This document shows, in pieces, positions 57,892 to 63,811 of a stretch of DNA of 64,000 nucleotides. How positions within the stretch are numbered: position 1 is the first letter of the stretch; every line of letters starts with the position of its first letter. Location of the stretch: IMG/VR virus record IMGVR_UViG_3300042889_001061, positions 47,145 through 111,144 of that record; one strand, 5' to 3'. This stretch comes from a virus. The notes beneath the pieces are model-generated. The model saw only the letters and a program-made list of their open reading frames with translations. It was not told the origin of the DNA and searched no databases. The position numbers and the translations under genes are program-made.

Positions 57892-59307
57892 ATGACTATA
57901 AAAGGAAATAATTTTAGCAACGAGAGTTTTTGTCCAGAAGTATATAATCAGATTCAGATTGATATGCAAGGCGATTTAAGAGTTTGCTGTTTGTCTTCTG
58001 ACGGCGGCCTAGCTAGAGAGGCCAGCGGAACTCCAATGAATGTAAAAACGCATTCAATCATCACCGCAATGAACAGCGAAATACACAAACAACACAGGTT
58101 AGATTTAAGTAATAACATTAAACCTCAACGATGCAGTAATTGCTATAATTGGGAAAATCACAGCAATGATACGAGTCGTCGTAAAAAGTTTATCAGACTA
58201 TCTCAAAATAAACTTGACTATGTCAAAGCCAGTGAAGCATTTGATGTAACAAACGATGACGGCTCCGTCGATGTTGACACTACTAAGTTGATTAATTTAG
58301 ATATAAGATTTGGTAATCTGTGTAACCTCAAGTGCATTATGTGTGATCCAGGAAATAGTAGTCTGTGGTATGAAGACTGGGATCTGCTATCTAGAAAATT
58401 TTCAAAAACTGAAGCCAGTGGACGATCGGTTAAATTTCAATTGGGTGGAATAGATCCGATCACTGGAAATACTCAGTACTGGAAAGATAAAACTAAATTT
58501 TATTCTCTTGAAAAGAATCAGTTAGGCAAATTGAAATTGCAAAATGAAGAAAACTGGTGGGAAACTGAATCGTGGAAAAATCAGTTTAAAAAAATTGCGC
58601 CCCAGTTACAGCATATTTACTTTACAGGCGGAGAGCCCTTGCTGGTACCAGCAATGGAAGAACACTTAACTTATCTAATTGAAAACGATTTTGCTAAAAA
58701 TATTATGCTGTGTTACGACACAAACCTGACAGTTGTCAATTCAAACATAATTAACAAATGGAAATTTTTTAAAGAAGTTGACTTGAGGGTCAGCGTAGAC
58801 GACACCGGTGACCGCTATAATGTGGTTCGAAATCCTGGAAATTTTGACAAGTTATATGATAACATAACTCGAATTCAAGAAGCCAACATAAAAATTAAAT
58901 ACATAAGCATAGTTTGTCACTTGGCCAATGTTTATGGTGTAATTCGCGTTGCAAAGTTAGCAAAACAGATAGGTGCTTCAATGTCATTGAGATTTGTAAC
59001 TAGACCGGGATGGATGAATGTGTCGAATTTACCTAATTCTGCTAAAGAAGAAGTAATTTCAGTGCTTACTAAATTTTTAGAATCCGAAGAATGTGAATCT
59101 ATCCGAGGATATGAAAATTTCGTTCAACAACAAATAAAGCATTTTCGTGACAACCAAACAACATCTTCACCAAACACAGGATCAAATTTGGAAACTTTTG
59201 TGCAAGTAATGAATCTAATGGATCAGTCTAGAAATCTAAACTGGAAACATACATTGTCTGATATTGCAGAACTTTTAAAGAAACATGTGCCGGGATTGGA
59301 CATATAA
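57892..59307 (+). CDS. Radical SAM protein with twitch-like domain, paralog of 32666..34057
   Basis: NLCNLKCIMC, SSLWYEDW, FTGGEP, YDTNLTV. Confidence 0.9.
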   Translation: MTIKGNNFSNESFCPEVYNQIQIDMQGDLRVCCLSSDGGLAREASGTPMNVKTHSIITAMNSEIHKQHRLDLSNNIKPQRCSNCYNWENHSNDTSRRKKFIRLSQNKLDYVKASEAFDVTNDDGSVDVDTTKLINLDIRFGNLCNLKCIMCDPGNSSLWYEDWDLLSRKFSKTEASGRSVKFQLGGIDPITGNTQYWKDKTKFYSLEKNQLGKLKLQNEENWWETESWKNQFKKIAPQLQHIYFTGGEPLLVPAMEEHLTYLIENDFAKNIMLCYDTNLTVVNSNIINKWKFFKEVDLRVSVDDTGDRYNVVRNPGNFDKLYDNITRIQEANIKIKYISIVCHLANVYGVIRVAKLAKQIGASMSLRFVTRPGWMNVSNLPNSAKEEVISVLTKFLESEECESIRGYENFVQQQIKHFRDNQTTSSPNTGSNLETFVQVMNLMDQSRNLNWKHTLSDIAELLKKHVPGLDI

Positions 59308-59443: not shown

Positions 59444-59473
59444 AAATTAGTTTTTATGTTTACTCAAAAGTAG

Positions 59474-59502
59474 TTGACATAAAAGATAAATAAATGTATA
59501 AT
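59474..59502 (+). promoter_or_regulatory. Consensus sigma70 promoter
   Basis: TTGACA-17 bp-TATAAT. Confidence 0.88.
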
Positions 59503-59551
59503 ATACACATACGCTAAAGAAAGCGTCAAGAAAGAAATTTTAGGAAAAGAT

Positions 59552-59677
59552 ATGAAAACGATTTTGAATCATAAACATTTTAATATATCCAAGCAGATGG
59601 GCTTAGTGCCATCCATTTGGTTTATTAGCTATGATGATTCACAAGAACGTATCGGGGTCCTGGAGACCAAAGTGTAA
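59552..59677 (+). CDS. Putative attenuator leader peptide (41 aa)
   Basis: AGGAA RBS; MKTILNHKHFNISKQMGLVPSIWFISYDDSQERIGVLETKV*. Confidence 0.7.
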   Translation: MKTILNHKHFNISKQMGLVPSIWFISYDDSQERIGVLETKV

Positions 59678-59732
59678 TAAGATTACATTTTAACTTCCAA
59701 GGACCCTAGGCTTAAAAACCCTAGGGTTTTTT
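59654..59732 (+). promoter_or_regulatory. Mutually exclusive antiterminator/terminator
   Basis: GGGTCCTGGAG pairs with TTCCAAGGACCC; ACCCTAGG/CCTAGGGT plus T-run terminator shares ACCC. Confidence 0.78.
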
Positions 59733-59749
59733 GTTTGTGAAAAGGAATT

Positions 59750-59914
59750 ATGACAGACGTAGATATTAAGAAACAAAAAGAAGCTGAGTGGATTCGACAG
59801 CATACGTTAACTCGGGAAGAAACTAAACAGTTGATTCTTAACAAGTTTAAACGTGCTGAAGCTATGCAGTCAGCTTTGAGAAAGCGGGAGATGTTTGTCA
59901 GCAAGCATCGTTGA
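59750..59914 (+). CDS. Small basic helical protein (54 aa) directly after the attenuator
   Basis: AAGGAA RBS; MTDVDIKKQKEAEWIRQHTLTREE... Confidence 0.65.
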   Translation: MTDVDIKKQKEAEWIRQHTLTREETKQLILNKFKRAEAMQSALRKREMFVSKHR

Positions 59915-59924
59915 TCGCAGAGTG

Positions 59925-60036
59925 TGTAATAAGAGCAGAAATGCCCAGGAAACGAGGTCCTGACATCGCACTATAAACATTGATGTAAACGGGCGGCCTG
60001 TAGGATGGAACTCTTCTTCTAGAGCGAAAAATTACA
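59925..60036 (+). ncRNA. Candidate structured RNA A
   Basis: TGTAAT/ATTACA closing stem; GCCC/GGGC, CAGGA/TCCTG, ACATC/GATGT. Confidence 0.55.
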
Positions 60037-60038
60037 GC

Positions 60039-60166
60039 GTATTAAAGCATACTTTCAATCTGAATTGACAGATACAAACAACCAAGGGGATCCGCTGGAC
60101 TTGAGCCAGGTGCATTCTGAATTGACAGGAATAAGGTTGTAAGGGGAGCCGAGTATGCTTTAATAC
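60039..60166 (+). ncRNA. Candidate pseudo-symmetric structured RNA B
   Basis: 15-bp perfect IR GTATTAAAGCATACT/AGTATGCTTTAATAC enclosing two CTG-AATTGA-CAG hairpins and two AAGGGGA. Confidence 0.65.
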
Positions 60167-60191
60167 ACACATTCGCAAGAGTGTGTTTAAA

Positions 60192-60785
60192 TTATTCTTC
60201 GGGATATGTTACTGTAATATTAGTATAATCGGTTCTATAATGGTGACCGTGAAACTTATAATGCATGTGAGACCAGTTATATGGTTTTGTGGCATCAAAC
60301 GGCTTTCCTATAGATAATGTTATTGGAGCAATCAGTTGGCCTGAAGCTTCGTCAATTTGAATATACTTTTTTAAAGTATCCCACGCTGACATTGCATGAA
60401 TCTTGAAACTACAGCAGAAGCCAGTTAAATATCCTTGTTCAATTGCTAGCATGCCTAGTTTAGTTTGTAACCTGCCAATTTGCATCATTGAGTACATATC
60501 GTTATTTCTTTTTGGCGTACACAAGATTAATATGGGTGCTATTACCTGAGTATTAGTTTTCCATGCAAACTTAGGCAATTCATATTCGTGATTAGCACTT
60601 GAATGAATTAATTTTATCTCCGATTCGTTGGTAATAACAAAACTGTTTATATCTAACTTTTCATGAGAAATAAATTCATCGTGTGTGTGTTTTATTAAAT
60701 TCATAAATTCACCGTCAATCTGATTGTGAACATCAAATGATCGTTGACATTTTTTAAATGTATCCTGTTTAATAAAATTATACAT
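60192..60785 (-). CDS. Nitroreductase-like protein
   Basis: KCQRSFD, QVIAPILI, GMLAIEQGYLTGFC, LSIGKP. Confidence 0.65.
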   Translation of the reverse strand: MYNFIKQDTFKKCQRSFDVHNQIDGEFMNLIKHTHDEFISHEKLDINSFVITNESEIKLIHSSANHEYELPKFAWKTNTQVIAPILILCTPKRNNDMYSMMQIGRLQTKLGMLAIEQGYLTGFCCSFKIHAMSAWDTLKKYIQIDEASGQLIAPITLSIGKPFDATKPYNWSHMHYKFHGHHYRTDYTNITVTYPEE

Positions 60786-61107
60786 TGATTATGAACCTCG
60801 CATTAATTTCATCGTCGACGACAAAGATTTCTTTAGAATAATTAAGTTTTTTATCAGTTAAGTAGTACTCTATAGAACCTATTGCAATGCCAGTGGCGTG
60901 CCATTTTTCTATTAATTTTTGATAGTCTTCTTGATAGTTAAGGAATGGATTTACCACTCGATCTCCAAAAAAATCTAAAGTAGATGATATCTCTACTTTA
61001 ATTGTAGAATTTGATATTGGAGATATGTTAGCACGAAAATATGTTTTTAAAAAACGAGCAGGGCTCCTTTTAAATATTTCGTTAAGTTCGGTTAATATCT
61101 CATTCAT
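60778..61107 (-). CDS. Hypothetical protein
   Basis: Start moved to MNEILTEL, outside the tRNA. Confidence 0.55.
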   Translation of the reverse strand: MNEILTELNEIFKRSPARFLKTYFRANISPISNSTIKVEISSTLDFFGDRVVNPFLNYQEDYQKLIEKWHATGIAIGSIEYYLTDKKLNYSKEIFVVDDEINARFIINV

Positions 61108-61143
61108 ATAAATTATCAGTGTAAAGTATTTATGTTTTAATTC

Positions 61144-61235
61144 ACCCCTGTAGTTTAATGGTAAAACGGCGGATTTATATCCCGTAAGCAACAGATAATT
61201 GGTTCATGTGGGTTCAATTCCCGCCGGGGGTACCA
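61144..61235 (+). tRNA. Atypical tRNA-Ile(TAT) with long variable region
   Basis: ACCCCTG/CGGGGGT-A-CCA; GCGGA-TTTATAT-CCCGT; 22-nt extra region; GTGGG-TTCAATT-CCCGC. Confidence 0.8.
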
Positions 61236-61239
61236 AATT

Positions 61240-61325
61240 GGAGGAACGGCGCAGATGGCGGTGCGCGGCAGACTGTAAATCTGTTCTCAAAAGGCTAGTT
61301 GGTTCGAATCCATCTTCCTCCACCA
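61240..61325 (+). tRNA. tRNA-Tyr(GTA)
   Basis: GCAGA-CTGTAAA-TCTGT; CCA. Confidence 0.93.
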
Positions 61326-61337
61326 AGTTTAGAATAA

Positions 61338-61412
61338 GCCATAGTAGTCCTCGGGGAGGGCAACGGATTGTCTATCCGTACCAGGTGGGTTCGAGTCCCA
61401 TCTATGGCGCCA
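61338..61412 (+). tRNA. tRNA-Asp(GTC)
   Basis: ACGGA-TTGTCTA-TCCGT; G73; CCA. Confidence 0.92.
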
Positions 61413-61417
61413 ATTAT

Positions 61418-61491
61418 GTATCCCTGATGTAATGGCAGCATAGCGGTCTCCAAAACCGTTTGTCAAGGTTCGAGTCCTTGGGGGTATGCCA
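61418..61491 (+). tRNA. tRNA-Trp(CCA) copy 1
   Basis: GCGGT-CTCCAAA-ACCGT; G73; CCA. Confidence 0.93.
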
Positions 61492-61715: not shown

Positions 61716-61789
61716 GTATCCATAGTGTAATGGCAGCATCGCGGTCTCCAAAACCGTCAGTCTAGGTTCGAGTCCTAGTGGGTACGCCA
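61716..61789 (+). tRNA. tRNA-Trp(CCA) copy 2
   Basis: GCGGT-CTCCAAA-ACCGT; G73; CCA. Confidence 0.95.
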
Positions 61790-61822: not shown

Positions 61823-63073
61823 ATGTCAAAAACAAAATTCTCTCAAACTGTTGTATGTCCAAATCCATGGACCGCAATGTATTTTCATATCAACTCTCCA
61901 AGTCCGTGTCATATCATAAGAAACGGTCTTATGAACATGACCATGGAAGAGTATATAAACAGCGAGTGGTTAGTAGACATTAAACAAAAAATGATTAATG
62001 GCATACGCCCAAAAGAATGCGAAAATTGCGAAACGAAAGAAAGACTAGGTCTCAAAAGTACTAGGGGTGCTTCTTGGCGTTACTGGAACATAGGTGAAGA
62101 ACCTAATCTAGAAGATCAACCATGGTTTCACAATATAACTGTTGACACTCCTACAAAGCCTAAACGAATAGAGTTGAGATTTAGTAATTTGTGCAATATG
62201 AAATGCAGAATGTGTGATGAAGCATCGAGTTCTGAAATTGCAAAAGAAAAACAAAAATACAATTTAGGCAATGATATTAATAATAATCCCGATAATATCT
62301 TTTTCGAAGATACTGACGAAAGCGTGTTAAAAATTACTGATGATAATATTCAAGGTTTAAAGAATATTGAATTACTACGCGACTTGCGTAAAGTATGTTT
62401 CACTGGCGGAGAACCATTTCTAATCAAAGGTTATTATGATTATCTTGATTTTTTAATTGAACACAAATTTAACGAGCGAGTTGAATTAGAATTATTTACA
62501 AATACAAGTGTATATAATAAATTGTTTGTAGATCGTTTAATGAAATTTCCTAAAGTAGAATTTACCATGAGCATTGACGGCGTTGGTAAAACAGCTGAAT
62601 ATATTAGACATGGTACAAAATGGGCTACGATTGAAAAAAATGTATTAACATTCAATTCTATGCCAAAGCCAATATTATGCTCGATAAATGTTGCAATTTC
62701 AGCTTATGTTTTGTTAGATGTATCTAATCTGGCATTATTTTTGATGAGACTATATCGTGAAAATAATAACATATTGATTAAATGTTATACTGTATTAATG
62801 CAGAGTCTTCGTTTTACATCTGCCCCTGCACATCTCAAAGAACGTATGTTACGTGAAATTGATTTAGCAATAGATATATTAGACTGTCCAAATTTTGCAA
62901 TATTTAGAAATGAATTGCTGAATTTACGTCCGCGAGTACTGTCAGCATTGAATGTTTCTAGGCCGCTCGACGAGAAGAAATTTATAGAGTTTACTCAAAC
63001 ATACGATAAGATTAGAAACGAATCGTTCGAGAATACATTCGGTATCCCGTTAATTTTAGATAAGGAAGAATGA
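61823..63073 (+). CDS. Radical SAM protein with twitch-like domain
   Basis: NLCNMKCRMC, FTGGEPF, SIDG....EYIRHG. Confidence 0.9.
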   Translation: MSKTKFSQTVVCPNPWTAMYFHINSPSPCHIIRNGLMNMTMEEYINSEWLVDIKQKMINGIRPKECENCETKERLGLKSTRGASWRYWNIGEEPNLEDQPWFHNITVDTPTKPKRIELRFSNLCNMKCRMCDEASSSEIAKEKQKYNLGNDINNNPDNIFFEDTDESVLKITDDNIQGLKNIELLRDLRKVCFTGGEPFLIKGYYDYLDFLIEHKFNERVELELFTNTSVYNKLFVDRLMKFPKVEFTMSIDGVGKTAEYIRHGTKWATIEKNVLTFNSMPKPILCSINVAISAYVLLDVSNLALFLMRLYRENNNILIKCYTVLMQSLRFTSAPAHLKERMLREIDLAIDILDCPNFAIFRNELLNLRPRVLSALNVSRPLDEKKFIEFTQTYDKIRNESFENTFGIPLILDKEE

Positions 63074-63735: not shown

Positions 63736-63811
63736 GGGACTATAGCTCAGCCGGTAGAGCAGCGGACTTTTAATCCGTTGGTCGCGAGTTCGAATCTCGC
63801 TGGTCCCACCA
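63736..63811 (+). tRNA. tRNA-Lys(TTT)
   Basis: GCGGA-CTTTTAA-TCCGT; CCA. Confidence 0.96.

Follow-up and report, generated by a model that had tools for sequence, protein, structure and literature searches.

Why phages carry tRNA genes and how these genes are regulated is an old question, with codon compensation and escape from tRNA-targeting defences as proposed roles (PMC10264068). The locus described here raises this question in a specific form, namely whether a ribosome translating a short leader reading frame could decide if RNA polymerase continues into a phage tRNA operon. From comparative sequence analysis, we consider it moderately probable that this operon is headed by a transcription attenuator of the trp/bmrB type, which would depend on the ribosome. 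The trp-type architecture recognised in the original prediction was found to be conserved, with covariation, in six sequence types.

The window, by which we mean the whole stretch of 64,000 nucleotides that was analysed, is the terminal 64 kb of a 111-kb viral contig and has a G+C content of about 38%. The contig is estimated to be one-third complete, and the phage should therefore be large, a giant freshwater phage. The attenuator element is present as a single copy in the 111-kb record.

The module recurs in metagenomic and viral loci

A DNA search of GenBank phages matched only a tRNA-Thr gene and nothing similar to the module, and a search of GenBank phages with the 54-aa protein encoded directly behind the terminator gave no match and hence no cultured relative or host. 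In metagenomes, homologues of this protein form 64 protein clusters with identities of 63–98%. An alignment of these homologues (A2) led us to 33 loci from metagenomes and 9 viral ones, almost all of them lake-derived. Every locus with sufficient upstream sequence contains the same module, in 30 distinct sequences, consisting of a consensus promoter, an ATG...TAA frame of 37–47 codons, a long hairpin spanning the stop codon and an intrinsic terminator, followed by the conserved gene of the 54-aa protein and by a structured RNA of about 270 nt. The homologues have not retained the terminator alone, as the reading frame and both alternative helices are found in the 30 distinct loci, and the overall architecture (leader, antiterminator, overlapping terminator, stop codon within the hairpin) is common to six sequence types. 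In locus L019, an inserted HNH endonuclease gene (125 aa; L019:2127-2504) separates the terminator from the 54-aa gene, and the U-run is reduced to three U.

Promoter and leader reading frame

The start of the module comprises the following features.

59474..59502, + strand: sigma-70-type promoter of the module (-35, 17-nt spacer, -10), 12 of 12 consensus positions
59511..59526, + strand: 5'-terminal hairpin of the leader transcript (4-bp stem, 8-nt loop), predicted by consensus folding
59542..59545, + strand: Shine-Dalgarno-like AGGA, six nt 5' of the ATG, read from the sequence
59549..59570, + strand: small hairpin around the leader start codon, from the consensus fold
59552..59677, + strand: leader ORF of 41 codons, ATG to TAA, open in 29 of 29 distinct homologues

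The promoter, ribosome-binding site and 41-codon ORF that had been claimed are all present, with the promoter matching the consensus at every position, AGGA at 59542-59545 in the place of the ribosome-binding site and the ORF encoding 41 aa. A consensus promoter is found at the equivalent position in the relatives. The 5'-terminal hairpin may act as a 5' stabiliser of the transcript; other lineages carry a hairpin of different sequence at the equivalent site.

An ATG start and a TAA stop delimit the leader in 30 of 30 distinct loci, 23 of which have a Shine-Dalgarno-like purine tract. In the remaining seven, which make up the two most divergent types, the ATG lies 7 or 10 nt past the -10 box, and judging from this spacing these leaders look leaderless. 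As the same frame is preceded by a Shine-Dalgarno-like signal in some lineages and started in an apparently leaderless manner in others, we argue that translation itself is the selected feature. Within the small hairpin around the start codon, the leader of the window has K2 and L5, and its nearest relatives (L007 and L008) have Q2 and V5; these differences at codons 2 and 5 amount to a compensatory exchange of a C-G for an A-U pair in the stem.

The leader frame is open in all 29 distinct sequences compared, with the two other frames closed in 27 and 29 of them, and the leader varies between 37 and 47 aa in length through indels that are in frame. It had been suggested that relatives would share a conserved frame with a non-conserved peptide; the frame is indeed conserved, but the peptide is partly constrained, with a pN/pS of 0.52–0.57 in the part upstream of the hairpin, compared to 0.37 for the 54-aa gene. 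The N-terminus, a K-Q motif and, mostly, one Trp are conserved in the peptide. Three relatives of the peptide (66–95% identical, 41–43 aa) occur as called genes in a library of 1.8 billion proteins, and searches of Pfam and PHROGs returned no family for it. This purifying selection means that the leader peptide may have a function of its own. In the ORF tail, pN/pS rises to 0.93 while synonymous divergence becomes lower, as expected for an RNA constraint in this part of the frame.

The conservation of the peptide N-terminus and K-Q motif, together with a pN/pS near that of the neighbouring gene, also fits an alternative in which the 41-aa ORF is simply a small phage gene of the ordinary kind. 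Behind it would lie a stabilising hairpin at the 3' end and a terminator whose constitutive leakiness would do no more than set the ratio of upstream to downstream transcripts, and the ribosome would have no regulatory part.

Two overlapping helices at the end of the leader

The following structures were predicted at the end of the leader.

59654-59665 with 59695-59707 (within 59654..59707), + strand: outer helix of the antiterminator hairpin, by RNAfold
59669-59678 with 59682-59691, + strand: apical stem of the antiterminator, containing the stop codon (59675-59677), by RNAfold
59703..59732, + strand: intrinsic terminator with a 7–8-bp stem (59703/4-59710 with 59719-59726), a 9-nt loop and six U

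Each of the proposed structures is present: RNAfold recovered the pairing of the ORF tail with 59695-59706 and the stem over the stop codon, and the terminator shares an arm with the upstream helix. The long hairpin has about 22 bp with internal loops, and nucleotides 59703-59707 are common to it and to the terminator. The 101-nt region folds better than 200 of 200 shuffled versions (z = -3.69), and the two states are similar in predicted energy in most variants (-25.8 versus -24.8 kcal/mol in the window). When a ribosome footprint was placed at the stop codon, as the original prediction had recommended, only the terminator remained in the fold.

To compare these structures between relatives, a covariance model (R1) was used, as MAFFT applied to all 30 regions misaligned the divergent types; the resulting alignment (A8) contains 25 sequences. 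The model misplaces the arm in the L015 and L033 types, and these were judged from single folds. Compensatory changes were detected in both helices. For the antiterminator, 94.5% of cells in A8 are paired and five pairs show compensatory changes; the corresponding values for the terminator, which was not used in fitting the alignment, are 100% and three pairs. The terminator 5' arm occurs in four variants (CCCUAGG, CCCUGGA, CCCCAGG and CCCCGGA), each of which is matched perfectly by its 3' arm, and both this 3' arm and the ORF tail carry changes that compensate for these variants. The overlap is illustrated by column 99 of A8, the fourth nucleotide of the terminator arm, which is common to both helices: with column 8 it forms the antiterminator pairs AU (10 sequences), GU (10) and GC (5), and with column 115 the terminator pairs UA (20) and CG (5), in both cases without a single unpaired cell.

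The geometry of the element is likewise retained. Across the loci, the terminator stem has a predicted energy of -10 to -14 kcal/mol and a U-run of 4–6. When the nascent RNA is folded as far as the loop of the terminator, 4–7 of the 7 arm nucleotides are sequestered in 30 of 30 sequences, with the partner of the arm located 2–29 nt 5' of the leader stop codon in these 30 sequences and a distance of 23–31 nt between stop codon and terminator arm in every locus. The hairpin is also retained in divergent types, where it is built from other sequences and has quite different apical sequences and loop sizes. The ORF tail of the L015/L033 type is complementary to 6 of the 7 nucleotides of the terminator 5' arm, and in L015 an outer helix occupies the terminator 3' arm too.

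After shuffling of the upstream part, the G+C-rich terminator arm was equally sequestered in 5–50% of trials, and a single sequence therefore proves nothing, so that the case needs the relatives. With these included, the sequence comparison indicates that the ORF, both helices and their overlap are more than chance. This comparative case is built on about six related lineages and therefore on few independent compensatory events. In addition, the overlap with the terminator arm is just 4–7 nt in the main type, in which a full terminator together with a shortened hairpin is nearly equal in energy to the antiterminator state, and the regulatory range may therefore be small.

The near-equal stability of a full terminator with a shortened hairpin, and the lack of significance of single-sequence sequestration relative to shuffles, would also fit the ordinary gene with a leaky terminator described above. 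Such an arrangement does not explain why changes in the terminator 5' arm are mirrored in the ORF tail, why the two helices cannot coexist in the L015 type, or why the stop codon occupies a fixed place in the hairpin in six sequence types; moreover, a plain 3' hairpin would need no terminator nucleotides. Accordingly, we regard the ordinary-gene explanation as unlikely and continue to favour attenuation by a translating ribosome.

A second alternative concerns what operates the switch. Among 19 sequences of the main type (window 59678-59749, alignment A4), 63 of 88 columns are invariant, unpaired loops included, so that the non-coding part is nearly invariant while the leader ORF upstream has a synonymous divergence of 0.43–0.50. 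This near-invariance exceeds what base pairing alone requires, and would suit a protein or RNA that binds the hairpin and sets the switch in place of the ribosome. The first gene past the terminator encodes a small basic protein predicted to form two helices, which would be a candidate for such a binder, acting by feedback. Against a binder of this kind, apical sequences and loop sizes differ greatly in the divergent types, and the open frame, the start signals and the position of the stop codon would be left unexplained, which makes this reading distinctly improbable.

Finally, the long hairpin, with its roughly 22 bp and internal loops, stands at the head of a transcript that needs tRNA processing anyway, and could serve as a site for RNase III or another processing activity that parts the leader from the tRNA precursor, with the terminator overlap being incidental. 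Covariation between the ORF tail and the terminator arm, the fixed stop position and the conserved frame would then have no explanation. Processing at this site would in any case be compatible with attenuation and not replace it, and as an alternative to attenuation we consider it extremely unlikely.

Additional RNA elements were sought in the leader. No conserved partner of the antiterminator 5' arm that could act as an anti-antiterminator appeared in single or consensus folds, and no conserved pause hairpin was found in folds of the leaders. A hairpin with a U-rich tract at 59596-59622 is present in the window and is not conserved. Rfam searches of the window and of L009 returned no family for the leader, the best match being GcvB at 21 bits against a gathering threshold of 42.

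A proposed switch driven by translation

The favoured attenuation model would operate as follows. Host RNA polymerase would start from the promoter at 59474-59502 and make the 41-codon leader. Once made, 59695-59707 would pair with the last leader codons at 59654-59665, and the hairpin would occupy 4–7 of the 7 nucleotides of the terminator 5' arm, blocking the terminator and allowing transcription to continue. By read-through, the 54-aa gene and the structured RNA would be transcribed, as would the tRNA array, which in most relatives comes directly afterwards. A closely following ribosome would at that moment be on codons 31–41 or at the TAA within the hairpin; it would cover or unwind the antiterminator 5' arm and the apical stem and leave the terminator arm free to pair with 59719-59726, and the transcript would end at the U-run. 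Fast translation would in this way lead to termination, and slow, stalled or absent translation to read-through. As the antiterminator would be blocked by a ribosome near the polymerase, the element would therefore read translation–transcription coupling. We infer both the role of the ribosome and the direction of control from the arrangement of these parts.

The nature of the signal can be approached through the codons of the leader. As originally described, the leader contains no run of a single amino acid. It does use 18 amino acids and 30 codons, but this diversity, taken at first as unusual, is ordinary: stretches of 41 codons drawn at random from neighbouring genes contain 16.7 +/- 1.4 different amino acids and 26.6 +/- 2.5 different codons. 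The tRNAs of the array read 26–59% of leader codons 2–28, and 24–66% of the codons of the neighbouring 54-aa gene. With no consistent excess over the 54-aa gene, we abandoned the idea of a leader that samples the codons served by the array.

A codon-specific attenuator, sensing either one tRNA (e.g. Trp) or the tRNAs encoded in the array, could be suspected from the mostly single Trp codon per leader and from the tRNA-Trp genes carried by the arrays. The missing codon run, the ordinary codon diversity, the similar share of array-read codons in leader and 54-aa gene and the location of the Trp codon (TGG) at another position in the L015 type all speak against it, and we judge codon-specific sensing to be very unlikely. 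We infer instead that the signal sensed by the attenuator is general translation capacity rather than one amino acid.

A more far-reaching model, which we put forward tentatively and which is less probable than attenuation as such, is a demand-driven tRNA homeostat, in which ribosome speed on a test frame would set transcription of the tRNA array, the small protein and the structured RNA. A link to anticodon nucleases, as imagined at the outset, is speculation.

Genes and transcripts behind the terminator

Downstream of the terminator, the following features were annotated.

59750..59914, + strand: conserved 54-aa gene, the first behind the terminator (64 protein clusters; pN/pS 0.37)
59917..60190, + strand: structured non-coding RNA behind the 54-aa gene, from a 19-locus consensus fold
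60192..61191, - strand: two antisense ORFs of 197 and 137 aa, between the structured RNA and the tRNA array
61144..61491, + strand: tRNA array with Ile-UAU, Tyr, Asp and Trp, by ARAGORN and Rfam
61716-61789 and 63736-63811: further tRNAs, Trp and Lys, respectively, by ARAGORN and Rfam

The 54-aa ORF begins 17 nt past the U-run, a gap with no room for a promoter, and the gene therefore depends on read-through. Its product is small and basic, and is predicted to form a two-helix hairpin (pLDDT 88.7). No family was found for it in Pfam or PHROGs, the score in the ESM Atlas was <0.9, and Foldseek returned no match in the PDB.

The structured RNA is about 250–270 nt long and contains no ORF; 41 consensus pairs are predicted from 19 loci, 23 of which show compensatory changes. 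Rfam searches with the window and L009 yielded no family for this RNA. The interior of its long helix is hypervariable, and the RNA of the window has an extra insertion of about 60 nt containing two copies of a 13-nt repeat (60059-60071 and 60118-60130). A stem-loop insert of about 30 nt is shared by several loci but sits at differing sites of the RNA, in the 3' hairpin in L007, L011, L014, L027-L029 and L042 and in the long helix in L024; as far as its distribution among the sequences indicates, it behaves like a small mobile hairpin. A resemblance to boxA in the 3' strand of the long helix was rejected as a candidate, as the helix covaries and L031 alters the motif.

Most relatives have up to 13 tRNA genes arrayed on the same strand, beginning 3–20 nt past the structured RNA. 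The placement of the module ahead of a tRNA array, as first described, thus holds directly for most relatives, but antisense genes intervene in the window; these ORFs (about 950 bases) were seen only in the window and its closest relatives (L001, L002 and L008). Neither ORF matched a family in Pfam or PHROGs. They overlap each other, and a longer reading of the second overlaps tRNA-Ile at 61144. The first tRNA behind the structured RNA (61144-61235 in the window) is 92 nt long with the anticodon UAU and a long extra arm, and such a 92-nt UAU tRNA is also first in L007, L009, L011, L025, L026, L028, L029 and L042. Two radical SAM genes are located amid the tRNA genes, at 57892-59307 (with a SPASM domain) and 61823-63073.

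A promoter of their own would uncouple the tRNA genes from the leader. Between 59502 and 61144 of the window there is no + strand promoter better than 9 of 12 consensus positions. The picture in the relatives is divided: the L015 and L018 types have their own consensus promoter just 5' of the tRNAs, but in L009 and L042 no consensus + strand promoter other than that of the module lies ahead of the tRNA arrays or inside them.

In three studies, RNA libraries yielded contigs that extend across the terminator (59556-60010, 59538-59763 and 59655-59773) and fit read-through transcripts, with the limits that contigs give neither ends nor strand and that DNA carry-over is possible. In all four RNA runs, 59448-59521, which includes the promoter, and most of 60188-60290 are uncovered; the gap at 59448-59521 was considered as evidence for the transcript start and rejected, as a gap in contigs proves nothing. 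A metatranscriptome contig of run X24 joins 59736 to 59947, skipping the 54-aa gene, and may derive from a relative without this gene.

Implications and comparison with known systems

If the attenuation model is correct, tRNA supply would respond to translation performance. A homeostat of the kind outlined above would boost the array after tRNA cleavage by defence nucleases, upon tRNA depletion or under late ribosome overload. The element further points to two co-regulated factors, the widespread 54-aa protein and the structured RNA of about 270 nt. It is small, self-contained and equipped with consensus sigma-70 signals, and is therefore amenable to reporter assays in E. coli.

Attenuation of phage tRNA genes by a leader ORF was not described in any paper found in a literature search. 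The closest parallels are bacterial. Like trpL, hisL, pheL, leuL and thrL of enterobacteria, the phage element has a short ORF close to its promoter and an antiterminator that overlaps the terminator, and its proposed logic would be that of the trpL type, in which a ribosome at the leader end masks an antiterminator arm and causes termination, and an earlier stall gives read-through (PMC1183508). Unlike the trpL/hisL type, the phage leader is without a regulatory codon run, and no 1:2 anti-antiterminator or pause hairpin was found; untranslated phage leader RNA should therefore read through and not terminate. Its antiterminator 5' arm precedes the stop codon instead of following it, and the regulated genes, those of a small protein, a structured RNA and tRNAs, belong to a phage.

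In the pyrBI and pyrE attenuators of E. coli, the distance between polymerase and leader ribosome is decisive, and not a specific codon run; a close ribosome prevents the terminator from forming and gives read-through, with UTP-dependent polymerase pausing as the signal. The phage element would also be based on distance, but a close ribosome should favour termination. The pheM leader, with its run of Phe codons, lies in front of pheST and regulates a synthetase; the phage element would similarly be a leader-peptide attenuator of translation-apparatus genes, with tRNA genes as its targets and not a synthetase. T-box leaders likewise couple the choice between terminator and antiterminator to tRNA status, but they have no ORF and bind the tRNA directly through the Stem I specifier and the conserved T-box bulge, whereas the phage leader has an ORF and no match in Rfam.

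A counterpart that likewise lacks a codon run is the bmrB leader of the Bacillus subtilis bmrBCD operon, an ORF of about 50 codons with ribosome-mediated attenuation and no single-codon run, on which the ribosome was shown experimentally to act as a general sensor of slowed translation (PMC4191407). As in the phage element, terminator and antiterminator overlap at the leader end; the bmrB terminator differs in lying inside the coding region, and an anti-antiterminator is predicted there (PMC4191407). Its inducers are ribosome-targeting antibiotics and its target is a drug exporter (PMC4191407). The host of bmrB is Gram-positive, and the two leaders have no sequence similarity. A general sensor of translation–transcription coupling, as in bmrB, would be the simplest fit to the phage leader.
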